DNA of 64,000 nt from Chitinophagales bacterium (GCA_046329515.1 JAXLUM010000001.1:1854329-1918328); one strand, 5' to 3'; shown: positions 491 through 56,310, numbered from the stretch's first letter. Program-made: numbers and translations. The notes: a model not told the origin generated them from the sequence alone.

Positions 491-3400
491 ATGAAGAAAA
501 ATTACCCCCTGATGCGTTCACTATTAGTGACCTTGTGCTGTTGCCTTGCTTTATTTTCCGAAGCTCAAATTACATGCAGCGTTAGCCTGCAACAAAATTC
601 ACCTTGTGCCCCTAAGCCAATATTGGCCCAGGCTACAGCCAGTTCCGTTTCCCCTATTACCCAATATTGCTGGCGTTTAACCAACTGCGCTACCGGCACT
701 GTTATTTTCCAAAGTTGCGGACCCAACCCCAGCTTTGCATATGTAAACTCAGTAGTGGGCAATTTATGCCTGCGCATGACTGTGTTTAATTCTGCCGGCG
801 ACTCATGTGTGCAAACCATAAATAACATCCTTGTTTCGGGCTCGCCTACCATTGACATGGGAATAAGCAATACGGAAGGATGTTGCGGTTTGAATGTGCA
901 GATGCAATGTAATATTACACCCGGTTGCGGCGCAATAGATTCACTGGTTATACAACCGGGTTGCGGCCCAATTATTTTCCTGAATAGCTGCCCTTCAGGT
1001 ATAATTAATATTCCTTACAACTGCTCCTGCCCTCCGGGCGTCTATGATGTAACCGTAGTTGCAAAAAACTCCTGCGGTTGTTATGCACAGCCTAAAACAT
1101 ATGCTGATACCGTTCACATTATACCTAAACCGGTTGCTTTTTTTACGGCAGATACTACTACGGCCCACTGTGCCAGCGGCCCGTTAAACGTAAACTTTAT
1201 GGCCAACAATGCCGGCCCTAATATGACCTATAAGTGGTATATTGACGGTGCCTTACAGCAAAGTTCAACGGCACCCGCAGGTTTAAACTTTACCCATTCC
1301 TTTCCAATATCAGCAAACTGTTATGATGTTAAACTTGTAGTGGTACATGCTTCGGGTGGAGGCTGTATTGATTCAATGGTAATAAGTGACCTGATATGCA
1401 ATACCAGCACGCCCAGCATTAATATAAGCAGCAACGTAAATACTACCTGTGTTAACAGCAGCACCCCGGCCACTATAACCTTAACTGACAATACCGGTGG
1501 CGGACCACACACTGTAACCTGGGCCATGCCAGCACCGCTGGGCACCCAAACGGGGCCTACTGCCACTTATACCACTACGGCTACAGGCACCTACACCGTG
1601 ACCGTTAATGCTTCTTATGGAGGCAACTGCTCTGCTACCTTAACGCAGGTAGTTACTACTTTAAATGCCAAACCCGTATCTAACTTTACAGTAAGTGATG
1701 ATTCGATCTGTAAACTGCCAGCATCAGTAACAGCAACAGCAACTCCTTGTGTAGGCTGTTCCTACGGGTGGAATTTTTCCGGCATAACTCCTCAGCCACC
1801 CAATAGTTCTACTGCAACTGTTTCTTACACCAATAATGGCACTTTCAATATATCATTGGTTACAACAGCGGCCAACGGTTGCGCCACCACCATTATTAAA
1901 AATAATGCGGTTGTAATACGCAGACTTGGTGCGAGAATTGGGATGAACGGCTCCTACGGCTGTCCTCCTAAATGTGTAACGTTTACGAACCAAACACCGG
2001 CGTTTCCGGGTGAGACTGTTTTACCGACCAACGTTTGCTGGAGTTTTCCGGGATCGGGTATTGCAGGGCAATGCAACAATACCATAAACCAATGCTTTGT
2101 GCAGCCCAGCTGCTATGATGTGCAGTTAGCAGTAACCACCGTTAGCGGTTGTACGGATACCGTAAAGCTTATTGACACAGTGTGTGTGCATGGCCCTCCG
2201 GTTTGCTCGGTTATTGCCGACCCTGATACCATGTGCTATGAAGCGGATTCAGTAGCGTTTACAATAATGTGCGATTCAGCAAACCTTATACACGCTATTT
2301 ATGGTGATGCCGGTGAAGACTGGGCGCATCCTACTGCCGGCGTTCCTTTTACGTTAGTTCATATGTACCTTGATTTTGGCAGCTTTAATGCCATGATAAT
2401 TACATACAGGGACAGTTGCCTGGGCGACACTTTTGTTATTCCAATTACAGTTTTCCCTCCTGCTGCTAAGTTTAAAGATTCAACAAGTTGTTCATTAGGC
2501 GATAGTATAATATTAGTGAACGAATCGAAATATGCTAACCGATGGACATGGTCGCTTTGTAACGGAGATACTATAGGCAGCGCAACCGGCCCTAAGAGCC
2601 CTAAAGTAAAAGTTGCTTTATGCGATACTTGTACTATTTCTCTCACTGCCTATAATGATACCACGGGCTGCGTCCATCAATATACCGAAACCATTAATAC
2701 GCCTTGCGACTCTGTATCCATATCCCCTTCCGATACTACTTATTGCGGCGGATTTATAACCTTGTTCAATACTTCGCCCGACCAGGTATCAAATCTCACT
2801 CAATGGGACCTACAAGGCTCTAATGCCATCTCCTGGTCACCCATTAAAGGGCCAAGCTACTCCTATAACCTTTTAAATCCGGGGTATTATAATCTTGCCA
2901 TGTTGAATACTACATCCGGTGGATGTAAGGATACCGCCTTTGCCAATGTACACGTATGTAAAATAACGCCGAACTTTGGGCCAACGAATGTTTGTTTGCC
3001 TGATTCGTTCTACTTCGTTGACTTAAGTAAAGATTCAACCTGCGGAGTTACGCATTGGAACTGGACCTTTGGCGATGGCAGCCCTGCTGACACTACATCA
3101 GCTCCGGTGCATGGTTATGCTAACTCCGGTACATACCAGGTACAATTAACTGTTCGTAATGATTTTGGTTGCCAGGCTTCTGTAACAAAGTCGGTAGTAG
3201 TAGGTGGTTATGTAAACTTCGACTACCAGGTTGATACTACAGTTTGCCCGGGACCTAACAGTACTGTTTGTGTTACCAATAATACCAGTAGTCCGGGTGT
3301 TACTTTAACATGGCAATGGACGGCGCAGACTCCTGCCGGCACCATCGTATCTAACCAAGCCGCCCCGTGTTTCGGCCCATATAATACAGCGGGTGATTAC

Positions 3401-6352: not shown

Positions 6353-6363
6353 AAGGAGGAACT

Positions 6364-7422
6364 ATGGCAAAAAATTTACTAAAATCCGTTTTTGTAACTG
6401 TAGTTATGGCCTTGCTGGCTTTGCAGGGTATTGCACAGGATATTCACTTCTCGCAGTATTACGCATCGCCTATGCAGCTAAACCCTGCATTAGCGGGTAT
6501 GAACAATTGCGACTATCGTATTTACGCCAACTTTCGCACCCAGTGGGTTACGGTTTCAACCGGTAATACCTATAGAACCGTTGCAGGCGGCGCTGATATG
6601 AGCATCGGCAAAGTAACCAAGTATAACAGCTTTGCAGGTTTGGGCATCTCTTTCTTTAGCGACCAGGCGGGCGATCTTAACTTCAACACTAACCGAATAG
6701 ACCTTTCATTTGCTTACCACTTTATGCTAAACCGTAAAGGAACTATGCAGATTTCTACCGGTATACAGGGCGCGTTTAACTACAACAGCATCAATCCTTC
6801 TAAGGCAACCTTTGATTCGCAATACGACCCTACAACAGGTATTGCTGACCCTAACGGGCAAAAAGAAAGCTTTGCCAAAACGCGTGTAATGTTCGGCGAT
6901 GCAGGCTTTGGCCTTTTGTATAGCGCCATAGTTAAGCAGCAAACCAATTTCTTTTTAGGTTTTGCCCTTAACCACCTTAACCAGCCTAAAATGTCGTTTC
7001 AACCTAATGGAACAACCAATGACGGCAGCGGTTTTGAGCGTTTGTACATGAAGATTACAATACATGGTGGAGCATCTTTACCTGTAGGTAAGCGCTTAGC
7101 TATACAGCCGCACTTTTTGGCGTTGGTACAGGGGCCTTCTTACCAGTTTAACTTAGGCTGTAACTTTAAAACCACTTTAGGAAACGTTACTACCAGCAGA
7201 ACAGCCTTGCACCTTGGTGTGCAATACCGCGGCTTGCTTGATGCAGTTGTGTTAAGCACCCGTATTGATGTAAAAGGTTTTGGCGCCGGTTTAAGCTATG
7301 ACATTAACGTATCTAAACTGACACCGGCCTCTCATTCAGTAGGTGCGCCTGAAGTTTCTATTATGTATCAGGGATGCGCCCGCAAGAAGCCTCATCCGGG
7401 GCACTGCCCTGCTTTGTTCTAA
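6364..7422 (+). CDS. PorP/SprF family type IX secretion system outer-membrane protein
   Basis: The 352-aa product has a signal peptide and the hallmark N-terminal motif QDIHFSQYYASPMQLNPALAG. The gene starts 11 nt after the type-B cargo gene and is preceded by AAGGAGGA. Confidence 0.9.
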   Translation: MAKNLLKSVFVTVVMALLALQGIAQDIHFSQYYASPMQLNPALAGMNNCDYRIYANFRTQWVTVSTGNTYRTVAGGADMSIGKVTKYNSFAGLGISFFSDQAGDLNFNTNRIDLSFAYHFMLNRKGTMQISTGIQGAFNYNSINPSKATFDSQYDPTTGIADPNGQKESFAKTRVMFGDAGFGLLYSAIVKQQTNFFLGFALNHLNQPKMSFQPNGTTNDGSGFERLYMKITIHGGASLPVGKRLAIQPHFLALVQGPSYQFNLGCNFKTTLGNVTTSRTALHLGVQYRGLLDAVVLSTRIDVKGFGAGLSYDINVSKLTPASHSVGAPEVSIMYQGCARKKPHPGHCPALF

Positions 7423-7510
7423 TTGAATGACTTGGTACTATAAAAAAAGCTGCCTTAAAAAAGTTGTGAGGTATCCTTTTATTTTCTTAAATAGTAACCT
7501 CTTTCAGAGC

Positions 7511-8218
7511 TTACAGCCACAAATGGTAGTAATATTGCTTATGGATAACATTAAATCCAAGCGCTTTGTAAAAAGCCATTGCACCACGGTTATCTTCCTG
7601 CGTGGATACCGTACATTTACTGTATCCATTTTGCGCTAAGTGATGTAGGCTATGGTGGATAAGAGCCCTACCTATTCCTTTAACCTGCTGTTTTTTGTTG
7701 GTTGCGATTAAGCTTATGGAAGGCGTCCCGTCCTTTATAGTAACGGAAATAAAACCCGCAAATTCAATTCCGATGTGGCAAACCCATACGAAGGTATTGG
7801 CCTCATCGGCGGTTTCCTTTTCTATCCAGCGTCGATACAACGCTTCAAAAGAGCCAACTGGAAAATTATTATCCAATTTGAACCGCGAAAACCCGCCGGC
7901 AATCAAGGCAAGTTCGTATAGTCTGGGGTCAACATTACCTGTATAACGACTTATATGCGAAGAAGGTTGAAATAAACTGGAGGAGGTATCAATGCTTAGT
8001 GTAACCTTCACATCGATAGGGGAAAGCCCTTGTAAGGTGTTAAGTGAGCCAATATCATCGTCTTCAACAACGATGTAAGCAAGTTCAATTTCATTCTGCC
8101 TTAACTCGGTTTGGAGCTGTACAAACTCAACATTAGTTAGCCCTTTGGGGTCTACCCTGGAAATGTTCAGTTGAAAAAAATCAGTATCCCACTGTTGTAT
8201 GGCAGCTGTGTAACTCAA
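7511..8218 (-). CDS. wecD: TDP-4-amino-4,6-dideoxyhexose N-acetyltransferase (WecD/RffC-like GNAT)
   Basis: The 235-aa product has an N-terminal QQWDTDFFQLNISRV. The central FSRFKLDNNFPVGSFEALYRRWIEKE and C-terminal STQEDNRGAMAFYKALGF resemble E. coli WecD (LTWENAFFG; SRFRAPWY...FYAQWIENA; ATQVGNTAALKRYIQSGA) as I recall it. The TTG start overlaps the stop of the upstream GT2 gene (TTGA at 8215-8218). Confidence 0.7.
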   Translation of the reverse strand: MSYTAAIQQWDTDFFQLNISRVDPKGLTNVEFVQLQTELRQNEIELAYIVVEDDDIGSLNTLQGLSPIDVKVTLSIDTSSSLFQPSSHISRYTGNVDPRLYELALIAGGFSRFKLDNNFPVGSFEALYRRWIEKETADEANTFVWVCHIGIEFAGFISVTIKDGTPSISLIATNKKQQVKGIGRALIHHSLHHLAQNGYSKCTVSTQEDNRGAMAFYKALGFNVIHKQYYYHLWL

Positions 8219-9165
8219 TTTGTATTCAGTGTTTTATGAACAATGAAATTGGGGCGATCCTTTACACCTTCAAAAATCTTAGCTATGTAAAGCCCTAGCA
8301 CGCCTAACATCGTTATAATCGTGCCTCCAATAAACCATATAGAAAAAATAAGGCTAGCATATCCTAAAACCTCAGTAGTACCCAAAATCCACCGCATAAT
8401 AATGTAGATTCCGAACATCAACGAAAAGAGAGAAATATACAAGCCTATTTTAACTGTTAAGCGCAGGGGTTTATCGGAGTTGGCAAGTATAATATTAAGC
8501 GCCAGTTGTAACAGCTTCGAAAAGTTGTAAGAAGTTTCACCTTCAAAACGTTCGCCATGCTCAATATCTACTGCAGTATGGGTAAAACCTACCCAGTTTA
8601 TCATAGCAGGAAAGTAGCGGATGTGTTCGGGTAATTTTATTATTTCATCAATTACTTGGCGGTGATAGACTCCAAAATTGGCTACCGTTCTATCAAATGT
8701 TGTTCCCGAAAGACTTGAAAGGAAAACGTGAAAAAGCTCCGAAGTTTTCCGCTTAAAAAAAGTATCCTTTCTGTTATGCCTTCGGCCGCGTACTATTTCA
8801 TAACCTTCCAAGGCTTTGGCATACATTAAGGGAATCTGGTCAGGCCTGTCCTGCAAATCGCAGTCCATTACTATTACCCATTCACCGGCAGTAAAGGTAA
8901 GCCCAGCTGAAATGGCATAATGCTGTCCGAAATTCCGGCTTAGTTTTACCCCCTTTACTTTCGGATTTTGCTTGCAAACTGCATCTATTTTCTGCCAAGT
9001 TTTATCAGGGCTACCATCTTCCACCAAAATAATTTCATATTTTTCGGTTAGTCGCGAAACCGACTCTTCAATCCGGAGCACAAGTTCCTCTACTATCAGT
9101 TCTGCCCGGTAAACGGGAGAAACAACACTTAACAAAGGCTTCTGTTTAAAACGACTTTCACCCAT
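8215..9165 (-). CDS. GT2 family polyprenyl-phosphate glycosyltransferase (GtrB/ArnC/DPM1-like)
   Basis: GT2 motifs are present: LLSVVSPVYRAE, ILVEDGSPD and the DxD-type VMDCDLQD. Two C-terminal TM helices (LRLTVKIGLYISLFSLMFGIYIIM; ASLIFSIWFIGGTIITMLGVLGLYIA) are typical of lipid-carrier-charging GT2 enzymes. The track start at 9183 is TTG, so I prefer the ATG at 9165. Confidence 0.8.
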   Translation of the reverse strand: MGESRFKQKPLLSVVSPVYRAELIVEELVLRIEESVSRLTEKYEIILVEDGSPDKTWQKIDAVCKQNPKVKGVKLSRNFGQHYAISAGLTFTAGEWVIVMDCDLQDRPDQIPLMYAKALEGYEIVRGRRHNRKDTFFKRKTSELFHVFLSSLSGTTFDRTVANFGVYHRQVIDEIIKLPEHIRYFPAMINWVGFTHTAVDIEHGERFEGETSYNFSKLLQLALNIILANSDKPLRLTVKIGLYISLFSLMFGIYIIMRWILGTTEVLGYASLIFSIWFIGGTIITMLGVLGLYIAKIFEGVKDRPNFIVHKTLNTN

Positions 9166-9418
9166 GAAATCTGGCAGTATCAATAATATGTCCCAATAGT
9201 TGTTTGAAATTAAGGCTGTGATTGATGTTTTTCAGACATTGAAATTTAAGCTGCAATATACCATTTAAAGGAAGAATAACAAGACTCTGCTTGTGGAGAA
9301 AGATGCTAAGGAATTGTAAATGACAACTTATGTTTTATTAATAGAGCCGTTTTGATAATTTTACACATTAAATTTTGAAGAACAGAGGGAGCCTTATTTG
9401 CCCCTAACCTCAGGCTGA

Positions 9419-10570
9419 ATGTATATACCATTTAACAAACCCTTTATTTCGGGCAGGGAACTTGAATTTATATTGGAGGCCGTTAATTCCGGTAAAATTT
9501 CCGGGGACGGAATGTTTACCCGCAAGTGCCACGAGTTTTTTCAGACCAACTATGGTCTCAACAAATGCCTGCTAACTACTTCGTGTACGGATGCATTAGA
9601 AATGGCCGCGATACTAACAAAAATTCAGGAAGGTGATGAAGTAATAATGCCGTCCTACACTTTCGTTTCTACTGCAAATGCATTTAGATTGCGGGGTGCC
9701 AAAATTATTTTTGCTGATAGCCGGAAAGACCACCCGGGGGTTGATGAAGACCAAATTGAAAGCCTTATTACAACCAGAACAAAGGCTATTGTGCCGGTAC
9801 ATTATGCTGGAGTAGCCTGTCAAATGGATAGGATAACAGCATTGGCTAAAAAATACAGTCTGTTTGTAGTGGAAGATGCAGCACAAGCAATTGATTCATA
9901 CTACACGGGTGCAGACGGTAAAAAAAAGGCATTGGGCTCTATTGGTGATTTAGGTGCTTTTTCCTTTCACGAAACGAAGAATGTGATTGCCGGAGAAGGT
10001 GGAATGCTTGCTGTAAATAATAAAGAGTTTGCAGAAAGAAGTGAAATAATCCGGGAAAAAGGAACGAACCGTTCAGCCTTTTTTAGAGGAGAAGTAGATA
10101 AATATGGATGGGTGGATATTGGTAGCTCTTACCTACCATCAGATATAATTGCAGCGTTTTTATACGCGCAATTAGAGAACCTACAACTCATTCAGGAAAG
10201 AAGAAAACAGATATGGGAACTGTATTGGAAGCGTTTGAATCCACTGCAGAATGCTGGGAAAGTGAAGTTGCCCGTTATTCCGGATTACGCCACCAACAAT
10301 GCGCATATGTTCTACTTGGTACTAAACAGCCTCAAGGACAGAACCGGATTGATAGAAGCACTGAAGAAGTATGATATACATGCAGTGTTCCATTATGTTT
10401 CGCTTCATAAAAGCAGCTACTATGTGCAAGGTAAAGAAGCGCAACCCTTGCCCATGGTGGAATTGTATAGCGACCGCTTGTTGCGTCTACCTCTTTTCTT
10501 TGATCTGACGGATGAGCAGGTGAATATGATATCGGATATGATAATAAACTACTTCGGCTTACCTGCTTAG
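9419..10570 (+). CDS. wecE: dTDP-4-amino-4,6-dideoxyhexose (Fuc4N/Qui4N-type) PLP aminotransferase, DegT/WecE family
   Basis: The N-terminus of the 383-aa product, IPFNKPFISGRELEFILEAVNSGKISGDGMFTRKCHEFF...LLTTSCTDALEMAAIL...GDEVIMPSYTFVSTANAF.LRGAKI.F.D, tracks E. coli WecE closely as I recall it. The PLP-lysine motif SFHETKN is present. Confidence 0.85.
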   Translation: MYIPFNKPFISGRELEFILEAVNSGKISGDGMFTRKCHEFFQTNYGLNKCLLTTSCTDALEMAAILTKIQEGDEVIMPSYTFVSTANAFRLRGAKIIFADSRKDHPGVDEDQIESLITTRTKAIVPVHYAGVACQMDRITALAKKYSLFVVEDAAQAIDSYYTGADGKKKALGSIGDLGAFSFHETKNVIAGEGGMLAVNNKEFAERSEIIREKGTNRSAFFRGEVDKYGWVDIGSSYLPSDIIAAFLYAQLENLQLIQERRKQIWELYWKRLNPLQNAGKVKLPVIPDYATNNAHMFYLVLNSLKDRTGLIEALKKYDIHAVFHYVSLHKSSYYVQGKEAQPLPMVELYSDRLLRLPLFFDLTDEQVNMISDMIINYFGLPA

Positions 10571-48504: not shown

Positions 48505-48535
48505 CTATAATCACATAGTAAATAGAAAACATAAG

Positions 48536-48562
48536 AAGGACTTCGTTTGAGGTCCTTTTTTT
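48536..48562 (+). terminator. Rho-independent terminator of rocD
   Basis: The stem AAGGACTTC / GAGGTCCTT (9 bp, one G-U pair) has a GTTT loop and is followed by a T-run. Confidence 0.65.
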
Positions 48563-48563
48563 A

Positions 48564-48715
48564 CTACCCCCTCCGCCAAACTTCGTATGGCTCGTCCCCC
48601 TTTCCGGGGGACAATAACCTAACTTCTTAGTTAAGCGCATTACTGTATTTAAACTGTCCTCCTGGCAGGAGGACGAGGAGATTCCGATAACAATCGGGAT
48701 TGACGGAGGAGGTAT
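48564..48715 (+). repeat. Multi-hairpin interspersed repeat, copy A (full length, 152 nt)
   Basis: Copy A contains four hairpins: GCCAAAC-TTC-GTATGGC, GTCCCCC-TTTCC-GGGGGAC, GTCCTCCT-GGC-AGGAGGAC and ATTCCGAT-AACA-ATCGGGAT. The 5' ACCCCCTCCGCC can pair with the 3' GACGGAGGAGGT. Homologous copies lie at 53123 and 54198. Confidence 0.85.
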
Positions 48716-48885
48716 TGAGCACAGAATGATATTAAAGACACATTCCCATTCCGATTACTTAATACGGGGCCTGATATTCTGCATTAAGCCCCTTCTATCC
48801 TACCTTCACAAAAAATATTTAGCAATAGAAATAGCTCTCTACCAGCTAATTAACAGCAGCTATCCACAGCCCTGAATCTCGCCTC

Positions 48886-48916
48886 TTGCCTTAACTACTC
48901 TTTTTGATTATATTTG
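48886..48916 (+). promoter_or_regulatory. Candidate Bacteroidota sigma-A promoter for the first island ORF
   Basis: A TTG at 48886-48888 is followed by a 20-nt spacer and then TATATTTG at 48909-48916 (TAnnTTTG consensus), 25 nt before the ATG at 48941. Confidence 0.35.
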
Positions 48917-48940
48917 TACCATTAAGGTAATTTAAAGTAT

Positions 48941-49378
48941 ATGACTAAACAGGACATTTTAAAGGAAAAACCGCTGGACCCGGAGCTGCTGCGTCCGCAG
49001 TTTTGGCAAATGCTGGAGGATAGCGAAATAGATGAGGCCTTTCAAAAACTGGATGAGCTGACTATGGAACTGGCCCTCCGCCTGCAACGCATGGAGCAAA
49101 CCGACCTGTTTAAACTAACCAACCAACAGGCGCTTGACACCATACGCCAAATGGAGCGCCAGCGCTTTGTGGTAGAAACCCTGTTTAACGCGCGTGAATT
49201 CGCCATGCAGCTTATTGATGCCCGCAAACAGAACCGTCTGCTGCAACTGCAATTAACAGAACGCAACTTTCAACTGCAATGCACCAATGATGCCCTAATA
49301 CAAACCCACGAAAGCCTTGAGTTTACTACGGAGCTGTGTGAGAAATATATGGACCAGTTGGCTAGTGGTAAAGGGTAA
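48941..49378 (+). CDS. Hypothetical coiled-coil protein
   Basis: The 145-aa product is rich in Leu/Gln/Glu/Arg heptad-like stretches (LQRMEQTDLFKL...RKQNRLLQLQLTERNFQLQ). I recognised no catalytic motif. Confidence 0.6.
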   Translation: MTKQDILKEKPLDPELLRPQFWQMLEDSEIDEAFQKLDELTMELALRLQRMEQTDLFKLTNQQALDTIRQMERQRFVVETLFNAREFAMQLIDARKQNRLLQLQLTERNFQLQCTNDALIQTHESLEFTTELCEKYMDQLASGKG

Positions 49379-49510
49379 ATGGCAAGCGGTGAACGGTAAA
49401 TAGCAAGTGGTGAATACAAACTCTTACTTCATACTTCTCAATTCTAACTTCTCAATTCTAAACTCTCACTTCAAACTTCTTATTTCTCACTTCATACTTC
49501 AAACTTTTCA
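49360..49510 (+). repeat. Iteron-like direct-repeat cluster immediately upstream of the ATPase gene
   Basis: A 21-bp unit is repeated in tandem: GGTAAATGGCAAGCGGTGAAC at 49374-49394 and GGTAAATAGCAAGTGGTGAAT at 49395-49415, with a partial copy just upstream. A perfect 14-nt tandem CTTCTCAATTCTAA occurs twice (49434-49461). At least four ACTTCAWACTTC-type words lie between 49426 and 49506. Confidence 0.8.
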
Positions 49511-49513
49511 CTA

Positions 49514-50530
49514 ATGGAAGACAAACTCCGCCAAATGATTGACCGCTTAAATACTGACCGCGGCGAGAAACTATTACTAATGAAACCCGCTGCACAATGG
49601 ATGCTGGAGGCCAGCCGCACGCCGGACCCTAAACTGCTGTTCAGCACCTTTTGGCGCGAGGGCGAACTGGCTATATTGTTTGCTGATACCAACGTGGGCA
49701 AAAGCATACTGGCCGTGCAAATTGCCGATGCCATAAGCCGTGGCCAGGGCGATGAACTGTGCCGCGTGGCCGTGCCTGCCCAAAAGGTATTGTATATGGA
49801 CTTTGAACTTAGCGCCAAGCAATTTCAAAAGCGCTATTGTAATGAGGCGGGGCGCATGTATAACTTCAGCGATAACTTTATACGCGTTGAGCTTAACCGC
49901 CACATGAAGCTGCTTACTGATTTTGACGGCGCCCTGTGGGCCGGAATTGAACGCGCCATTACCGAAAGCGGCGCACGTGTGCTTATAGTTGATAACCTTA
50001 CCGCCCTAAAACTGCAAAGCACCGAAGCCGCCAAGGAGGCCATACCGCTAATGAATAACCTGCTGCAACTTAAACACAAACTGGGCCTTAGCATATTGGT
50101 GGTGGCGCACACGCCCAAGCGCAACCGCAGCAACCCCATTACCGAAAACGACCTTGCCGGCAGCAAACTTATAAGCAACCTGGCCGATACCCTTTTTGCC
50201 ATTGGCCACAGCGCCATGGGCAGCGACATGCGCTACCTTATACACGTAAAGGACCGCAGCGGCAACAAACAGTTTGGGTACGACAATGTAATTAGCTGCC
50301 GCGTAGTAAAAACCGATGCACAACTCTGCTTTATGCCGCAGGGTTACGGCCCCGAAAAGGACCACCTTAGCCCACCCGAAACCGGCGATAGCCGCGCACA
50401 ACTGGATAGCGATATTGTGGATTTGTATAACAGCAACCCCAACCTAAGCAACCGCGAAATTGCCCGGCAGTTGAATACAAACCCTATGAAGGTAACAAGG
50501 GTATTGCAACGCGAAAAGCTGCTTGATTAA
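49514..50530 (+). CDS. RecA-fold (AAA_25/RepA-like) ATPase with a C-terminal helix-turn-helix
   Basis: The 338-aa product has Walker A FADTNVGKS (nt 49685-49705) and Walker B ARVLIVDNLTAL, followed by SILVVAHTPK. The C-terminal NLSNREIARQLNTNPMKVTRVLQRE looks like an HTH. The gene is GC-rich relative to its neighbours. Confidence 0.8.
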   Translation: MEDKLRQMIDRLNTDRGEKLLLMKPAAQWMLEASRTPDPKLLFSTFWREGELAILFADTNVGKSILAVQIADAISRGQGDELCRVAVPAQKVLYMDFELSAKQFQKRYCNEAGRMYNFSDNFIRVELNRHMKLLTDFDGALWAGIERAITESGARVLIVDNLTALKLQSTEAAKEAIPLMNNLLQLKHKLGLSILVVAHTPKRNRSNPITENDLAGSKLISNLADTLFAIGHSAMGSDMRYLIHVKDRSGNKQFGYDNVISCRVVKTDAQLCFMPQGYGPEKDHLSPPETGDSRAQLDSDIVDLYNSNPNLSNREIARQLNTNPMKVTRVLQREKLLD

Positions 50531-50582
50531 GTGTAACACTGTAACAGTTGTAACACGCATAACAGCCGTTACACTGTTACAT
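50531..50582. repeat. Palindromic element, copy 1 (abuts the ATPase stop codon)
   Basis: The sequence is GTGTAACAC-TGTAACAGTTGTAAC-ACGCATAACAGCC-GTTACACTGTTACA-T, homologous to 52958-52999. Confidence 0.85.
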
Positions 50583-50691
50583 CCCTTCCGTCATTCAGTT
50601 TCTACTTTCCAAAAAAAATCTTTCGTGAACTGATGAAAAGCTTGGTTCGTGCAATTACCTATTGTACCTTAGGCATACAAAACCCCTAACT

Positions 50692-50907
50692 ATGAAAAGC
50701 AATTGTCAAAACCATGAATTTAATTTTTGGGCCAACTTATGTTTAGGCATTTACTACTTTGCTGAATACAATGATATAAGTGCTAAACGCAAAATAGACC
50801 CAATCAAAAAAATAGCTGCTAAAAATGAAGCTGCTGAAAAGTCCATAGACTTTACTCTAAAATCGCTTGGTGCTCTTATAGATTACCACAACTGTAGACG
50901 CGGATAA
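50692..50907 (+). CDS. Hypothetical small protein (71 aa from the ATG)
   Basis: The sequence is MKSNCQNHEFNFWANLCLGIYYFAEYNDISAKRKIDPIKKIAAKNEAAEKSIDFTLKSLGALIDYHNCRRG. The track start at 50662 is TTG. The ORF is AT-rich and I recognised no family; coding status is uncertain. Confidence 0.35.
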   Translation: MKSNCQNHEFNFWANLCLGIYYFAEYNDISAKRKIDPIKKIAAKNEAAEKSIDFTLKSLGALIDYHNCRRG

Positions 50908-51087
50908 TTACCCCTCGCTGCTTTGCATTTTGTCCTGAAGGTGGGCTACCATCTTTAGATATTCCTCTTTTTCCTTAGGTGGCATGGCATCCAGTTTCCT
51001 TTTGGCTTCTGCCAAAGCCTCAGGCGAAAAAAAACGCTTGAGCGCTTTTTGATGTAACGCTTCTAATTCTTCTTTGCTGCGTTCCAT
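50908..51087 (-). CDS. Hypothetical small helical protein (59 aa; below the ORF-track threshold)
   Basis: My own translation is MERSKEELEALHQKALKRFFSPEALAEAKRKLDAMPPKEKEEYLKMVAHLQDKMQSSEG. It is divergent from the methyltransferase gene. Its stop abuts the stop of the 50692 ORF (TAATTA at 50905-50910). Confidence 0.4.
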   Translation of the reverse strand: MERSKEELEALHQKALKRFFSPEALAEAKRKLDAMPPKEKEEYLKMVAHLQDKMQSSEG

Positions 51088-51223
51088 ATACTAAAGTGGA
51101 TATTAACATAAAGCAATTAGTATAAAAGTAAACAGAAATGTTTACTTCTATAATCAAATTGACTTCTTTTAAGTCGGATTGACTTATTGTAATTATGTAC
51201 CAATAGTGCCTAATACAGAGTTT

Positions 51224-51294
51224 GTCAGTCTGAGCTTGTCGAAGACGACAATCGTATTGCGCAGTTAAGCACCCTTCGACAGGCTCAGGGTGAC
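51224..51294. repeat. Inverted-repeat (MITE/REP-like) element of the GTCACCCTGAGCCTGTCGAAGGG family
   Basis: The 21-nt arms GTCAGTCTGAGCTTGTCGAAG and CTTCGACAGGCTCAGGGTGAC have 1 mismatch and 2 G-T pairs, with a 29-nt loop. The element ends 31 nt upstream of the methyltransferase ATG. The spurious ORF 51020-51334 reads HPEPVEGC through it. Confidence 0.8.
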
Positions 51295-51325
51295 AGAGCG
51301 CTATATTATAAAATGGTAATAACCC

Positions 51326-52957
51326 ATGAACCACCTGTACTTTGGCGATAGCCTTGATATACTAAAGGAACTGCATGCCCAGCACCCCGAAGGCTTTATT
51401 GACCTAATATATATTGACCCGCCTTTTAACAGCAAGCGCAATTACAATGTGTTGTTTGAAACCGTAGATATACATGATGCCAAGGCACAGAAAGAAGCCT
51501 TTGCCGATACCTGGAGCAACGTAAGTTATTTTGATACCATAAGTGAGTTAAAGGCTTCAGAATTACATCTCACTAATTTGTTAGAAGGATTACAAGCTGC
51601 TGGTATTAGTAAAAGCGCGATTAGCTATTTATCGACTATGGCTATACGTATTTTTTATATACACAAAGTATTAAAGTCTACAGGCAGTTTCTACTTGCAT
51701 TGCGACACCACCATGAGCCACTATCTTAAAATAATCTGTGATATCATTTTTGGTGTTAAGAATTTCAGAAACGATATTATCTGGAAAAGAAGTGATGCAA
51801 AAGGTGATATCAGTCAAGGCGCTAAGCACCTGGGTAGAAATACAGATAACATTCTTTTTTACACAAAATCCGATGACGCCTATATCACCCAGTTGTACAC
51901 TCCTATGACCGAAGATTACATTGATAGATTTTATAGGCACATTGAAGAAGGAACTGGCAGAAGGTATAAGCTCGATAATATGCTCGGCCCAGGTGGCGCA
52001 GCAAAAGGCAATCCATATTACGAAGTGATGGGAATAAAGAGATATTGGCGTTACAGTAAGGAAAAAATGGCTGAGCTTATTAAAGCGGGTCGCGTAATTC
52101 AGACTAACCCAGGTACAGTACCCATGTATAAAAGATATTTGGACGAATCAAAAGGTGTGCCTTTAGGTAATTTATGGATTGACATAGACCTTGTACGCGG
52201 TCATTCTAAAGAAAAGCTAGGATATCCAACACAAAAGCCTGTAGCCTTGTTAGAAAGGATTATTCAAATAAGCAGTAAACCCGGTGATTTGGTTGCTGAC
52301 TTCTTTTGCGGTTGCGGTACTACCATAGCTGCTGCCCAAAAGCTAAACCGTAAATGGATAGGCGTTGATATTAGCCACTTAGCCGTAGGCTTAATACGCA
52401 AGCGCTTAATTGATAACTATGGCGAAGAGATAAACAAGACCTTTGATATAAAAGGCTTACCTAAGGATGTTGCCAGTGCACACATGCTGGCCGAGCAGCC
52501 GCAGGGCCGTATGCGTTTTCAGGATTGGGTTATTGAAACCCTTATTGGCGGCGTAACCAACGAAAAGAAAGTGGGCGATGGCGGTTATGATGGCTACACT
52601 ACGTTAGAAGTAGAGAAGGGTAAAAAAGAGATAGTATATATTGAAGTTAAAAGCGGTAACATAAACGTTAGCACCCTGCGCAGCTTTGCTAAAACCGTGC
52701 AACAGCAAAAAGGCAGTGCCGGTATATTAGTTTGTTTTAAAGAACAAATTACCAAGGGCATGTTAAACGAAGCCAAGGGCGAGGGTTACTTCCGCGAAGA
52801 TTTATTCGGCAACCGCTTCGATAAAATACAGATAATAAGTGTAGAAGATTTACTGGATGGTAAAATGCCTGAACTGCCCCGCAGTACCGAAACAGGCCCA
52901 TTCAAAAAAGCCGAGAAAGCCGAAAAGAAAGGCAAAAGCAAGGGATTGTTTGATTAG
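51326..52957 (+). CDS. Beta-class (N6-adenine/N4-cytosine type, DPPF) DNA methyltransferase fused to a C-terminal PD-(D/E)XK Mrr-like restriction-endonuclease domain
   Basis: In the 543-aa product, motif IV IYIDPPF (nt 51416-51427) lies N-terminal to the AdoMet motif I DFFCGCGTT (nt 52298-52321), which is the beta permutation. QKP lies before motif I. The C-terminal VGDGGYDGY...IVYIEVKSG (D418/D422, E440-V-K442) fits the Mrr_cat-type D...(D/E)xK signature. Confidence 0.85.
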   Translation: MNHLYFGDSLDILKELHAQHPEGFIDLIYIDPPFNSKRNYNVLFETVDIHDAKAQKEAFADTWSNVSYFDTISELKASELHLTNLLEGLQAAGISKSAISYLSTMAIRIFYIHKVLKSTGSFYLHCDTTMSHYLKIICDIIFGVKNFRNDIIWKRSDAKGDISQGAKHLGRNTDNILFYTKSDDAYITQLYTPMTEDYIDRFYRHIEEGTGRRYKLDNMLGPGGAAKGNPYYEVMGIKRYWRYSKEKMAELIKAGRVIQTNPGTVPMYKRYLDESKGVPLGNLWIDIDLVRGHSKEKLGYPTQKPVALLERIIQISSKPGDLVADFFCGCGTTIAAAQKLNRKWIGVDISHLAVGLIRKRLIDNYGEEINKTFDIKGLPKDVASAHMLAEQPQGRMRFQDWVIETLIGGVTNEKKVGDGGYDGYTTLEVEKGKKEIVYIEVKSGNINVSTLRSFAKTVQQQKGSAGILVCFKEQITKGMLNEAKGEGYFREDLFGNRFDKIQIISVEDLLDGKMPELPRSTETGPFKKAEKAEKKGKSKGLFD

Positions 52958-52999
52958 TGTAACAGTGTAACACCCATAACAGCCGTTACACTGTTACAT
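52958..52999. repeat. Palindromic element, copy 2 (abuts the methyltransferase stop codon)
   Basis: The 14-bp arms TGTAACAGTGTAAC and GTTACACTGTTACA are perfect, with a 13-nt loop ACCCATAACAGCC. Confidence 0.9.
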
Positions 53000-53122
53000 T
53001 AAAGTCAACTACCGTATATTTATCGTCCTTGCAATTCTAAGGACCGGTGAAGAACCCATGCCTTAGTTCAATGTAGGGTGCGCCTTTCTGCAAAGAGAGG
53101 CGTTTTATCTTTCGCCCTATTC

Positions 53123-53225
53123 AATAACCCAGCTTCTTAATTAAGCGCTACACTGTATTTAAACTGTCCTCCTACACAGGAGGACGAGGAAATCCCGATA
53201 ACAATCGGGATTGACGGAGGAGGTA
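53123..53225 (+). repeat. Multi-hairpin interspersed repeat, copy B (3' 103 nt only)
   Basis: Copy B aligns with 48613-48715 of copy A with about 12-13 differences by eye. It retains the hairpins GTCCTCCT-ACAC-AGGAGGAC and ATCCCGAT-AACA-ATCGGGAT. Confidence 0.85.
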
Positions 53226-53259
53226 GTGCATTTTACCTGCCTACTTATATATTCGCCGC

Positions 53260-53907
53260 ATGAAAACAGCTAAATATCCTGCGTTAATAGTACTCGCTCT
53301 TTCGGTAAGCGCCATGCTACTGCTAAATGCCTGCAAAAAGGAAAGCCTGCCGAATTGGGATGTTCCTAAAATTAAAACCTGGACCTACAGTTTATTGCAA
53401 ACCGGTGTGCATGTTACCATGCACTACACCTACGATACTGATGGCCGCGTAACGGAGGAACTCTCTACCAATGACGCTTCCTCAACAACCTATACTAATA
53501 CGTTTACTTATAGCAATAACTATGTTTTGGTTAGCTACCATGGCACCTCGCCTGATACTATTTGGTTGAATGCCGATGGATTGAATACAGCCTTTACGTT
53601 TAATGCAGATGGCTATAGAACGGCAGGTAATAGCGGCGAAACGTATGAGTGGGTGGATGGCAATACGGCAACGGCTTACGGCAATACCGGTGATACTACC
53701 CATTTTACCTACGCTACGGATAAGCAGAATACCATAGGCTATTACAATAAGGGTATCTATACCATGGGCAAAGACTCAAAAAATCCTGTTCTTACGGCTA
53801 CCAGCTCAAGCGGGGCTATTTACAACTATACCTACACCTACGACCAACAAGGCCGTATTGCAAGCGTAACAAGCGCTACCGATACCAGTTATTATACGTA
53901 TTACTAA
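53260..53907 (+). CDS. Hypothetical lipoprotein
   Basis: The 215-aa product has a signal peptide with a lipobox-like LLNAC. It is Thr/Tyr/Asn-rich with repeated TYTY motifs. I recognised no family. Confidence 0.7.
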   Translation: MKTAKYPALIVLALSVSAMLLLNACKKESLPNWDVPKIKTWTYSLLQTGVHVTMHYTYDTDGRVTEELSTNDASSTTYTNTFTYSNNYVLVSYHGTSPDTIWLNADGLNTAFTFNADGYRTAGNSGETYEWVDGNTATAYGNTGDTTHFTYATDKQNTIGYYNKGIYTMGKDSKNPVLTATSSSGAIYNYTYTYDQQGRIASVTSATDTSYYTYY

Positions 53908-53974
53908 GCTGCAATTTACCTGCGCCAGTTGAGTTCGAATTGACGGGATTGATTCAGCATCTCGTTTAACTGAG

Positions 53975-54182
53975 ATTCCGTGTCGCAGCACGGAATGACG
54001 GGACTGGTTGTATTTTTTCCCCTCCTTGGCTAAGGAGGGGCAGAAACAGACTCCGCTTGCGGAGGATGGTTCGGGGTGGTTTGATATTACTACCACCTCT
54101 ACTTTGAAAACGCTCCGCATTTTTAAATTCTTCTCCTACTTAAAAAGGAGGAGAATCTAAACACAAGCACGGAATGACGGGA
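53975..54182. repeat. Cluster of short GC-rich hairpin repeats
   Basis: ATTCCGTG-TCGCAG-CACGGAAT lies at 53975-53996 and CCCCTCCTT-GGCT-AAGGAGGGG at 54019-54040. TTCTCCT...AGGAGGAGAA follows, and the word CACGGAATGACGGGA occurs twice (53989-54003 and 54168-54182). Confidence 0.75.
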
Positions 54183-54197
54183 ATGTGTTTTTGCATA

Positions 54198-54363
54198 CTA
54201 CCCCCTCCGCCATACTTCGTATGGCTCGTCCCCCTGTCCCGAAGTATCGGGAGGGGGACAATAACCTAACTTCTTAGTTAAGCGCAGTACTGTATTTAAA
54301 CTGTCCTACTACACAGGAGGACGAGGAAATCACGATTGCAATCGGGATTGACGGAGGAGGTAT
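54198..54363 (+). repeat. Multi-hairpin interspersed repeat, copy C (full length, 166 nt, with an extra nested hairpin)
   Basis: Copy C has the same architecture as copy A, plus an inserted TCCCGAAGTATCGGGA hairpin inside the GTCCCCC/GGGGGAC stem-loop. Confidence 0.85.
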
Positions 54364-54467
54364 TTAATTCCTCCCTCTGCCTCACTGCGTTCGGCTTCTC
54401 CCTCCAAAGGGAGACAGGTTTGCCCTCCGCGATGGAGATGGTTTTACTAACCCCGCCTCCCAACTAC

Positions 54468-55676
54468 TTACATTTTCCCGAAGCGTTTTAATGCGGTATG
54501 GTTGGTGGCAGTGGTAAGCTTTATAAGGTAACTACCGGCAGCTAAGGGGCTTACATCAATGGTAGCTGTAGCCTGGGGCGTTAACACCAATTGACCATTC
54601 AGGTTAAACACTTCTACTTTGATAATAGCTTCGTTACAGGTAATGTTTAGGTAATTGCCTGCGGGGTTGGGGTAAAGTTGCAGGCTTGCTTCGTTCAAAT
54701 AAGTAACTGCTGAAGGCTGGATAACTATGTTAGGTGTGCCATGGCGAACTACCAAACCATTAGCGCCTACGGCCCAACCAAGGGTATCATTCAAAAAGAA
54801 CAGGGCATTAGGCGTAGCCGTATGTAGGGTATCCATAGTCCATGTTGTGCCGCCATTAGTCGTTTTGCGCAGGGGTTGGTCGTTACCGAAAGAAGAAGAA
54901 ACTACCGCCCAACCGTTTTGGCTATCAGTAAAGTGAACATCGTGCTTACCGGCATTAGTGCCCGAGGCTTTGTCCGTCCATGTGCTGCCGTTAGCTGTAA
55001 TTTTAAACGCGGAAGGATTGCCACCTGCCCAGCCTTCCGTTTCTGAAAGCATTTGCAGGCATATAAGATTTAAGGTGGAAACTGAACCTGCAGCTACCTG
55101 TTCGGTCCAGCTTGCGCCGGCATCATCAGTATATACTACCAGCCCGCGGCTGCCTACTGCCCAGCCTCTGGTGCCGCTTAAAAAGTGCATGGCATAAATG
55201 CCTTTGCTTGGTGCAGCTACGGTTTGCCAGCTTGCGCCACCGTTGGTAGTGCGCTTTACAATACCCGGCACTCCGTTACTGCCTGCTATGTAGCCGGTAT
55301 CAGGCGTTACAAAAAATACATCTTCATAGTTAATCTGGTTGCCGCTATCAATGGCCAGCCAGGTATTGCCGCCATCATCAGTAGTAAGTATGCTTTGCTT
55401 GCCTCCCACTACCCAACCCTTAGTGGGGCTTGTAAAAAACACTGAGGTAAAACCCGTGCTTGTAACCGGCGAGGTTTGCGCTGCCCAGTTTGTTCCGCCA
55501 TCGTTTGTAGTTAGTATTGTGCCCTGTTGGCCAACAGCCCAACCTTTGCTTTCGTTAATAAAAAACACATCGGTTAGTTCTTTGGTAGTGCCGCTGTTTA
55601 GGGGCGTCCATTCCTGTGCGTTAGCTATAAAACATAAAAAGAGGGAAAGGGTAAATAGTGTAAGTTTTGCTTGCAT
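54468..55676 (-). CDS. T9SS type-A cargo: BNR/Asp-box (Ycf48-like) beta-propeller plus C-terminal sorting domain
   Basis: The 402-aa product has a signal peptide and Asp-boxes (TNDGGTNW, TDDGGNTW, TTNGGASW, TDDAGASW, TTNGGTTW). The C-terminus LQLYPNPAGNYLNI...AGSYLIKL fits the type-A CTD. Confidence 0.85.
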   Translation of the reverse strand: MQAKLTLFTLSLFLCFIANAQEWTPLNSGTTKELTDVFFINESKGWAVGQQGTILTTNDGGTNWAAQTSPVTSTGFTSVFFTSPTKGWVVGGKQSILTTDDGGNTWLAIDSGNQINYEDVFFVTPDTGYIAGSNGVPGIVKRTTNGGASWQTVAAPSKGIYAMHFLSGTRGWAVGSRGLVVYTDDAGASWTEQVAAGSVSTLNLICLQMLSETEGWAGGNPSAFKITANGSTWTDKASGTNAGKHDVHFTDSQNGWAVVSSSFGNDQPLRKTTNGGTTWTMDTLHTATPNALFFLNDTLGWAVGANGLVVRHGTPNIVIQPSAVTYLNEASLQLYPNPAGNYLNITCNEAIIKVEVFNLNGQLVLTPQATATIDVSPLAAGSYLIKLTTATNHTALKRFGKM

Positions 55677-55785
55677 ACAACGGGTTTTAGGTACGTGTTT
55701 ATTGTATTACAAGGATATACCATGCGAAAAGGCGCATCAATCACCCGAACGGGGGATTTGGTTATTACTACTGTATAAATAAAGC

Positions 55786-56310
55786 TTATTGAGCCTGTTG
55801 GTCTTTGGGCGGCTCCTTTACAAAGGCAGAGACTATTAAGCGGAATAAAGAAGCAAGTGTTTTCCAACCGCCATACAGTAACATGCCTATACCCAAAAAG
55901 AAAACTACATTGTCAACCCAGGGGCTTACTACAAATCGGTTACCGTTTTGGGCCATCCACACACAGGGGTCTTCAAATTCATTTTGCTCGGGGTTATTTT
56001 TATTAAACCAAACAGCAAGTTCAAGGTCGGGCTTATCGCTTAAGGAGCTTTTCTCCACCACATACTCGCGGCCTTTTACGGCATAGGTATAACTGTACTT
56101 ATACAGGTTGGCTTTTAGTGTGCGCCTTTGCACGGTATAAACTTCGGCAGTTTCATTTAAAAAGGCAGTAGTGGAATCAACATTAGCGCAAAGGGTTTTG
56201 TAGCGCTGCACCGTGCCCTGCTTTACTAAAACAGTAGTTAACTTAAGAAGCAAAAAACCGATGATGGCTACAGCGGCAAAGATTAGCAGTTTACGTAAGT
56301 GTTGGTTCAT
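55786..56310 (-). CDS. DUF3592-like membrane protein
   Basis: The 174-aa product has an N-terminal TM helix, a central soluble beta-rich region and a C-terminal TM helix (VVFFLGIGMLLYGGW). The family assignment is tentative. Confidence 0.6.
   Translation of the reverse strand: MNQHLRKLLIFAAVAIIGFLLLKLTTVLVKQGTVQRYKTLCANVDSTTAFLNETAEVYTVQRRTLKANLYKYSYTYAVKGREYVVEKSSLSDKPDLELAVWFNKNNPEQNEFEDPCVWMAQNGNRFVVSPWVDNVVFFLGIGMLLYGGWKTLASLFRLIVSAFVKEPPKDQQAQ

Follow-up and report, generated by a model that had tools for sequence, protein, structure and literature searches.

A mobile-element ATPase gene, its putative iteron palindrome and a restriction-modification-type gene in accessory DNA downstream of rocD in a Chitinophagales genome

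Layout of the locus

The DNA analysed here, referred to as the window, is a 64-kb Chitinophagales stretch on which all coordinates are counted. It contains a proposed island of about 4.6 kb, between rocD and a lipoprotein gene, which an earlier note made from the sequence alone had described as a block of mosaic composition with five open reading frames (ORFs), here called P1 to P5. ORF calling found all five where they had been placed. Two are large: P2 encodes a RecA-fold ATPase ending in a helix-turn-helix (HTH), and P5 a DNA methyltransferase joined to a nuclease domain. Directly 3' of the stop codons of both P2 and P5 is a 34-nucleotide (nt) direct repeat (33 of 34 identical), part of a palindrome of about 50 nt built of short repeated motifs (iterons), which had escaped the first reading of the sequence. 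The two copies of the palindrome bracket exactly the low-GC segment holding P3, P4 and P5. The island is fairly likely to be a composite, in which a stripped replication-type module from an element of the NBU1/Tn4555 lineage is joined to restriction-modification (R-M)-type cargo held between two copies of the cognate palindrome of that module. Comparisons were made with a set of 245 loci (L-numbers) totalling 2.96 Mb. The features of the island are as follows.

48941–49378, + strand: P1, 145 amino acids (aa), predicted helical or coiled-coil, fast-evolving, positional partner of P2 (ORF call, profile scans)
49359–49512, + strand: tandem arrays filling the gap between P1 and P2 (tandem-repeat search)
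49359–49414, + strand: first array of the gap, a G-rich 21-mer in 2.7 copies
49417–49512, + strand: second array of the gap, G-free, 7/14-nt unit in 6.9 copies, ending at the P2 start codon
49514–50530, + strand: P2, 338 aa, RecA-fold ATPase (superfamily 4, DnaB/gp4-like) with a C-terminal three-helix HTH (AAA_25, HTH_24, AlphaFold)
50531–50582, no strand: iteron palindrome 1, GTGTAACAC TGTAACAG TTGTAACAC - 11 nt - GTTACAC TGTTACA, beginning one base past the P2 stop (repeat family D7)
50662–50907, + strand: P3, small ORF of 81 aa with a TTG start or 71 aa with the ATG at 50692, no family match (ORF call; also called on L001)
50908–51087, − strand: P4, small charged helical ORF, 59 aa, tail-to-tail with P3, no family match (ORF call)
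51223–51295, no strand: long imperfect palindrome upstream of P5, resembling repetitive extragenic palindromic (REP) sequences (DNA fold −22.6 kcal/mol, z = −4.7)
51326–52957, + strand: P5, beta-class (Type III Mod-like) N6-adenine DNA methyltransferase with a C-terminal PD-(D/E)xK (Mrr-like) nuclease domain (Pfam, PADLOC, homologues, fold matches)
52957–52999, no strand: iteron palindrome 2, GTGTAACAG TGTAACAC - 11 nt - GTTACAC TGTTACA (repeat family D7)

The mosaic composition persisted when GC content was recalculated in 1-kb sliding windows over the 64 kb (mean 0.442, standard deviation 0.023). The two extremes of the whole stretch are adjacent and both fall inside the island, with the maximum of 0.518 at 49501 and the minimum of 0.378 at 50701. 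By gene, GC content is 0.518 for P2, 0.486 for P1, 0.346 for P3 and 0.41 for P5. Nothing at family thresholds was found for P1, P3 or P4 in Pfam, NCBIfam, PHROGs or PADLOC.

The ATPase P2 and its family

P2 matches AAA_25 (E=8e-24), HTH_24 (1.8e-4) and primase/helicase families of PHROG. Its AlphaFold model, with a predicted local distance difference test score (pLDDT) of 85, ends in a three-helix bundle and has the T7 gp4 helicase, DnaB, RadA and KaiC as its best PDB matches. All of the family-invariant residues are retained. A protein 100% identical to P2 is on record from a 1.95-Mb contig of an NCBI metagenome-assembled genome. The family has more than 4000 relatives, some of them fused to VirE_N/PriCT primase domains. 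An alignment query of the family found relatives on 'viral' contigs of IMG/VR; P2 as a single query found none on viral contigs.

Neighbouring genes were called at 132 P2-family loci from metagenomes and IMG/VR. In this set the upstream gene is an HTH_17 excisionase-like gene in 47 out of 85, and the downstream gene encodes Zn_ribbon_16 with DUF6371 in 53 out of 69. Annotated Bacteroides plasmids and transposons have the order integrase, transposase, excisionase, AAA ATPase, DUF6371, mobilization protein and cfxA. This is the context of a mobilizable transposon of the Tn4555/NBU1 type, for which a review (PMC5704250) served as source; the gene table of MTnBf8 gives the identical gene order (PMC13597742). 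Genes of the P2 family normally stand in the order excisionase (Xis), ATPase, primase-like gene, mobilization gene (Mob) and integrase of NBU1/Tn4555-type mobilizable transposons.

Searches of the 64-kb window by tblastn with examples from the family found no integrase, Xis, Mob or primase-like gene, in keeping with the reported absence of an integrase and a relaxase. Two family integrases used as queries for a tyrosine integrase gave nothing, and there are no tRNA genes in the window. The mobilization protein of L240, used as query for a Mob relaxase, had no match, and DUF6371 had no significant one, leaving the ATPase as the only member present of the triplet of Xis, ATPase and primase-like gene. 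Because the integrase, excisionase, primase-like gene and relaxase are missing, the module formed by P1, P2 and palindrome 1 is most likely an immobile relic or a helper-dependent module.

Similar pairs of P1-like and P2-like genes are found elsewhere. In L108 the pair lies within an integrated element with integrase, RteC and Xis (HTH_17), while in L105/L106, L107 and L185 it lies between housekeeping genes, with no integrase within the stretches examined. The L108 element also has an 86–88-nt unit in eight tandem copies (7182–7906), just downstream of the P2-like gene.

No homologue of P1 was found among 1.84 billion (1.84e9) representatives, and a profile scan gave no HTH_17 match. There is a weak profile match between P1 and the proteins encoded upstream of P2-like genes in L105, L107, L108 and L111 (hhalign probability 29%, E=5.7e-4). 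In the subfamily closest to P2 (50–55% identical) a helical protein of 140–155 aa is encoded upstream, either replacing Xis or beside it.

A comparable G-free 14-nt array precedes the P2 homologue in L105 (9704–9808) and L106 (2147–2251). A G-free array with a 7/14-nt period that reaches the P2 start between P1-like and P2-like genes is seen in two unrelated genomes, with differing repeat sequences. The possibility that the arrays of the P1-P2 gap form a long hairpin was rejected, as both strands fold worse than shuffled sequences, and a match to the G-rich 21-mer at 62855 is a coincidence inside a coding region.

An iteron palindrome at the ends of P2-family genes

The two palindromes of the window have the same layout and orientation, and the right halves are identical at 33 of 34 positions; palindrome 2 has one left-arm iteron fewer. 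It shares the last base of the P5 stop codon (52955–52957), with its first GTAAC iteron beginning 2 nt later. Both fold better than expected (z = -2.8 and -4.6), and they are the only two TGTAACA clusters in the 64-kb window.

A regular expression for a pair of direct GTNNC motifs and, after them, a pair of inverted copies was run over the 245 loci. There were 107 matches, and all of the listed ones lie within loci containing an AAA_25 gene. About 78 of the 107 coincide with the 3' end of an AAA_25 gene or lie close by, in most cases directly against the stop codon. The others are six extra copies in L236, second copies in the window, L001 and L122, and copies upstream of the gene in L108, L111 and L126. 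No match was found in approximately 1 Mb of rocD control loci. With a strict criterion of exact 6-mers, applied to non-redundant P2-family gene ends and to other gene ends in the same loci, the palindrome is present at 67 out of 109 P2-family gene ends versus 11 out of 716 control gene ends.

Across the family the palindrome takes the form of 3+2–3 short iterons, and the motif varies by lineage (GTAAC, GTCCC/GGGAC, GTTCAC, CGTAC, GTCCAC, GTCAC and GTTCC). These variants correspond to the recognition helix of the HTH: [MV]KVxR is found with GTAAC (33/34), LGAVNKY with GTTCAC (6/6), SEGA[IV]RKW with CGTAC (5/5) and SKSxV with GTCCC or GTCCAC (5/5). Within the P1-P2 subfamily alone, with a mutual identity of about 50%, MKV/VKV goes with GTAAC and (K/R)(K/R)V with GGGAC. 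Because the motif co-varies with the recognition helix, also within this subfamily, the simplest interpretation is binding of the iterons by the HTH of the ATPase, and P2 probably binds the palindrome of the window. The gene-end counts and the helix-motif correspondence resemble an iteron origin, where repeated short motifs lie by the initiator gene and have a specificity matching the initiator variant.

Two other readings of these sequences were set aside. An integron attC site was dropped, since there is no integron integrase, the core sites are unlike GTTRRRY and the arms are direct iterons. GTNNCAC arrays were rejected as a general feature of methyltransferase loci, being present in the window, L235 and L236 only and not in L242–L244 or the viral loci; the scan of the 245 loci showed that they go with the AAA_25 family. 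A limited literature search found no description of the palindrome.

Twin sites and cargo

Relative to the P2 stop codon the palindromes of the window are at +2 and +2428, thus 2.4 kb apart in the same orientation. Beyond the window, a distant second copy was found in one other locus (L185) among the 67 with a defined motif. In L185 the sites are at +2 and +2164 from the ATPase stop, and the two-gene unit that they bracket matches the PADLOC candidate PDC-M31 (subunit A E=6e-78, subunit B E=3e-10); this locus lies between a pepN-like gene and aconitase. The duplicated DNA in both the window and L185 is the palindrome alone, the flanks having no homology.

In L236 a P5 homologue (69% identical) adjoins a P2 homologue (45% identical), with the gene order the reverse of that in the window. 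Between dnaK and rpoC of this locus (2193–10066) are seven GTTCC iteron palindromes separating individual genes. The genes so separated are the methyltransferase, the AAA_25 gene, a 118-aa ORF, GH3/Anthrone_oxy genes and an ion-channel gene, which gives the region the look of a cassette array. No integrase was found in the 12 kb of L236.

The L235 locus has a lone P5 homologue (68% identical) with an array of about nine GTACC/GGTAC iterons on either side, the two arrays being inverted relative to each other, at 7804–7899 and 9648–9763. An identical 16-nt palindrome (TGTACCATGTGGTACA) is present at each outer end of these arrays.

The methyltransferase-nuclease P5

P5 matches N6_N4_Mtase (E=7e-44) and NA-iREase1/Mrr_cat in Pfam, and the MTase_II and MTase_III models of PADLOC. 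Its best matches in the PDB, by both sequence and fold, are EcoP15I Mod, H. pylori Mod (Type III) and M.RsrI. At least 8000 proteins, about 543 aa long, share its architecture and make up its family. Among 33 homologues the DPPF and FxGxG motifs of the methyltransferase and residues D422, E440 and K442 of the nuclease are invariant, and residues ~150–290 are variable, as expected of a target-recognition domain. The catalytic motifs of a methyltransferase and of an endonuclease are therefore on one polypeptide, as in single-chain R-M enzymes. No Res subunit (superfamily 2 helicase plus nuclease), as required for Type III R-M, was found in the island by ORF calls or profile scans. P5 is likeliest to be a single-chain R-M enzyme, as predicted from its domains and conserved residues. 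The alternative is an orphan methyltransferase with a DNA-binding domain of nuclease fold.

Close homologues of P5 are found in varied places: between housekeeping genes, by an IS110 transposase, by an HTH_3 gene and in a phage-like contig. A conserved operon around them was rejected, their neighbours being unrelated to each other or to P3/P4. No P3 homologues were found near other methyltransferase loci, and P3 and P4 have no conserved partners. Between loci with methyltransferases of the P5 type, DNA homology extends from start codon to stop codon and no further. The homologues are solitary, their neighbours vary and the homology is confined to the ORF, therefore P5 is seen as a self-contained, horizontally mobile gene. 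In a limited search no characterisation of this family was found in the literature.

The variable region downstream of rocD

The island is surrounded by the following further features.

48536–48562, + strand: rocD terminator-like hairpin (AAGGAC...GTCCTT) followed by a T-run (direct reading of the sequence; with its 10-nt loop it is not listed by the consensus terminator scan)
48562–48717, no strand: dispersed REP-like multi-hairpin repeat, copy 1 (repeat families D1, D3 and D6)
53080–53110, + strand: terminator-like GC hairpin followed by a T-run (terminator scan)
53116–53232, no strand: REP-like multi-hairpin repeat, copy 2, 3' part only (repeat search, cross-genome DNA match)
53260–53907, + strand: lipoprotein gene, inside the block missing from L002
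53260–55676, no strand: remainder, after the island, of the block missing from the nearest relative, with the lipoprotein gene, REP-like copy 3 and the YCF48/BNR gene
54196–54369, no strand: REP-like multi-hairpin repeat, copy 3, full-length, beyond the island (repeat search)
54468–55676, − strand: YCF48/BNR protein with a type IX secretion system (T9SS) sorting tail, inside the block missing from L002

Relatives were scanned through rocD at one genome per species, and their flanks were searched with the proteins of the window; all are metagenome-assembled genomes (MAGs) of Chitinophagales. The sole relative close enough to inform an empty-site comparison is L002, a contig of a congeneric MAG, with 97% identity to the window in the rocD protein and 86% in the TonB receptor. 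Its DNA aligns with the window as far as 48504, and the alignment resumes at 55822. In L002, 379 nt separate rocD from a homologue of the window ORF at 55786–56310. The region downstream of rocD is accessory. The 4.6-kb island of the earlier note is thus missing from L002, as part of a larger polymorphic block with different boundaries, 48505–55785 (7.3 kb), which also includes the lipoprotein and the T9SS-sorted YCF48/BNR protein and has both flanks kept in L002. In more distant relatives synteny is lost downstream of rocD.

The sole ORF in the 'empty' interval of L002 (3560–3742, − strand) has an N-terminal pattern, MxxSK[DE]EL...H, that is also seen in P4 on the − strand of the window. P4 was not supported as its orthologue, since the local alignment score was not significant (p = 0.06).

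An exact-protein look-up of P5 found one 3.6-kb metagenome contig, L001 (run SRR14234087), which is identical to the stretch of the window from P2 to P5. The same look-up with rocD and P2 gave no match. In another contig from the same run, L103, a KAP-family NTPase comes after a P2 homologue with 51% identity.

The multi-hairpin repeats had been presented as bracketing the island. The copies at either end are real, yet the third, full-length copy lies outside it, and the repeat is 83–84% identical to intergenic DNA of L105, another Chitinophagales (copy 1 corresponds to L105 12602–12678 at 84%). On account of the third copy and the match in another genome, the repeat is, to judge from its sequence distribution, REP-like and dispersed rather than a pair of ends unique to one element. 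No Rfam family was found at threshold, and the REP-like family is absent from Rfam. Adjoining copy 3 is a sub-threshold Rfam match to whalefall-1 RNA (54368–54417, − strand; 27.4 bits versus a gathering score of 37, E=8.6e-4), and more REP-like palindromes are seen at about 53940–54170. Far from the island, at 4712–5540, is a direct repeat of about 55 nt in three diverged copies, spaced 519 and 255 nt apart, which may be repeated domains of a protein-coding gene.

Origin and possible function of the island

In the composite reading, the variable, REP-rich site that follows rocD would have received two units, each acquired separately. The first (48.9–50.6 kb, GC ~0.50), made up of P1, P2 and palindrome 1, would be a stripped replication-type module from integrative mobilizable elements of Bacteroidota. 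The C-terminal HTH of P2 would recognise the palindrome directly 3' of its own gene, and this palindrome may be a helicase-loading, origin-like site, in analogy to phage-inducible chromosomal islands (PICI), whose origin lies 3' of rep, and to ori and crr of P4. The second unit (50.6–53.0 kb, GC ~0.40) would consist of the two unconserved small ORFs and P5, ending in the second P2 palindrome. P5 is predicted to methylate adenine in its own site and to cut unmodified DNA. The cargo may have come to lie between cognate sites through capture by recombination at the palindrome, or the second site may itself be functional.

Several observations weigh against this reading or parts of it. The helix-motif counts are not phylogenetically independent, and the palindrome could instead serve as a regulator or terminator inside an operon, between the genes for ATPase and primase. 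The picture of a site that belongs to P2 fails in L235, where the P5 homologue is flanked by iteron arrays and an AAA_25 gene is missing from the 8 kb to each side. Simple decay of the module does not fit with the retention of all invariant residues in P2, nor with the recurrence of integrase-less islands of P1-P2-like genes (L105/L106 with a KAP NTPase, and L185). For P5, the Pfam family of the C-terminal domain is labelled 'inactive' (NA-iREase1) and Mrr_cat barely passes, at 22.1 versus 21 bits. The empty-site test is based on one relative, L002, which differs by 7.3 kb, so that there may have been an insertion here or a deletion there.

The five ORFs might instead be one new multi-gene defence system, with the ATPase-HTH sensing or translocating on foreign DNA, the methyltransferase-nuclease acting as effector and self-marking enzyme and the small ORFs as regulators. 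This is very unlikely, although L236 has homologues of P5 and P2 side by side with cognate palindromes around both, and P2-type modules are beside defence genes in L107 (AbiL, AbiT) and L185 (PDC-M31). Five of the six distinct loci with close P5 homologues have no AAA_25 neighbour (L235, L237, L242, L243 and L244; L238 and L239 are further contigs of the L237 protein, which was counted once). Only L236 has one, in reversed gene order. A co-occurrence of the ATPase and the methyltransferase-nuclease, which the earlier note had put forward as a check, comes to a single P2-family locus out of 132 with even a distant methyltransferase nearby, plus L236. Neither large gene is accompanied by conserved counterparts of P1, P3 or P4, and the two halves of the island are about 10 GC points apart. 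PADLOC found no known multi-gene system, as had been supposed, giving generic MTase_II/III matches for P5, nothing for P1, P3 or P4, and for P2 a weak match to mad8 of the methylation-associated MADS system (E=1.2e-4) that is far below family level. The proposed undescribed five-gene module therefore does not hold, its two large families being mostly apart and its small ORFs conserved with neither; both large proteins belong to big families already annotated, though uncharacterised. Of the suggestion of a defence or plasmid-derived origin, what survives is that one part is a mobile-element replication module and another an R-M-type enzyme; they are not one coherent system.

Little probability is likewise given to the duplicated palindrome being a mere terminator or REP-like selfish repeat, within an ordinary horizontally acquired patch without cis logic. 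Both copies do follow stop codons and fold well, the region is rich in other REP-like palindromes and the L236 motif is also present between unrelated genes. This type of palindrome is however tied to AAA_25 gene ends at more than 60 independent loci and absent from the control Chitinophagales loci, and the motif and the recognition helix change together. Its arms are made of direct repeats, which would be superfluous for a plain RNA hairpin, and the 64 kb contain just two clusters of TGTAACA. Somewhat less improbable, but still doubtful, is that the block is an active helper-dependent mini-element, similar to a satellite, in which, upon induction, the segment would be replicated or amplified by means of P1-P2 and the twin palindromes, and would be moved by the integrase and transfer machinery of another element. 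P2 is intact, its relatives are found on IMG/VR 'viral' contigs, and islands of the P2 type that lack an integrase and carry defence-like cargo are repeatedly found between housekeeping genes (L105/L106, L185 and the window); the PICI and P4 satellites are a precedent, with rep-ori modules next to interference or defence genes. Against this, the window has no att sites, integrase, packaging or transfer gene, and the boundaries relative to L002 do not match the palindromes.

The composite reading makes the island itself ordinary accessory DNA of modest interest, a mobile-element relic and an R-M-type gene. What appears to be new, at the level of sequence comparison, is that the palindrome is found at gene ends across the family, that it co-varies with the HTH and that defence cargo is repeatedly bracketed by it. 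A DNA target is now predicted for a poorly understood protein, the 'AAA ATPase' of the mobilizable NBU1/Tn4555-type transposons that spread cfxA and other resistance genes in gut Bacteroides. This target is a compact iteron palindrome at the end of the ATPase gene itself, with a specificity that tracks the recognition helix. The role of the protein thereby becomes testable, the candidates being origin binding, helicase loading and excision-linked replication. The family of methyltransferase-nucleases, which has more than 8000 members and keeps both active sites, is a candidate for a class of single-chain restriction enzymes.

The twin sites around defence cargo in three independent loci suggest a route by which such modules pick up or hold defence genes. 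It is conceivable, if rather unlikely, that integrase-less helicase-HTH modules with twin cognate iteron palindromes are a distinct cassette holder in Bacteroidota. Defence genes would be captured between two origin-like sites (the methyltransferase-nuclease of the window, the PDC-M31 pair of L185 and several genes in L236) and perhaps amplified or exchanged by P2-dependent replication or by recombination at the palindrome.

Comparison with known systems

The multi-hairpin repeat resembles the dispersed intergenic palindromes of the REP and bacterial interspersed mosaic element (BIME) type in being intergenic, present in three copies within 6 kb and common to another genome.

P5 shares with Type III Mod proteins such as EcoP15I a beta-class methyltransferase with DPPF and an inserted target-recognition region, and differs in having no Res helicase subunit. 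Like Type IIC/IIG enzymes it has a methyltransferase and a PD-(D/E)xK nuclease on one chain. In classical Type IIG enzymes the nuclease is N-terminal and the methyltransferase gamma-class, whereas P5 has a C-terminal, Mrr-like nuclease and a beta-class methyltransferase, with both activities predicted.

An alignment covering 93% of P2 gives 45% identity to the 'AAA family ATPase' that Tn4555-like cfxA elements and Bacteroides plasmids encode. With NBU1, Tn4555 and MTnBf8 the module has in common a RecA-fold ATPase of similar size and the gene-end iteron palindrome, which in Bacteroides is of the GTCCC type. Unlike these elements, the window has no integrase, targeting protein, HTH_17/DUF3853 excisionase, DUF6371/Toprim primase-like gene or Mob. 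P1 is in the position of the excisionase, and the cargo follows directly after the ATPase.

The α protein of P4 has octamer iterons as its binding sites, both in ori and in crr, a second cluster some distance away. These octamers resemble TGTTCACC, which is close to the GTGTTCAC variant of L159. P2 has no detectable sequence homology to the Pri-Rep or α proteins, and its family has the primase as a separate downstream gene, missing in the window, where the origin is putative. The iterons of the window form a compact 3+2–3 palindrome with an 11-nt spacer, while those of PICI and P4 are two sets flanking an AT-rich region. The module nevertheless has the arrangement of P4 α and of the pri-rep-ori of PICI, including the Staphylococcus aureus pathogenicity islands (SaPI): a helicase-type initiator with a sequence-specific C-terminal DNA-binding part, predicted in the case of P2, and an iteron site directly 3' of its gene. 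An iteron origin immediately 3' of the initiator (rep) gene is the documented layout in PICI (PMC6092414).

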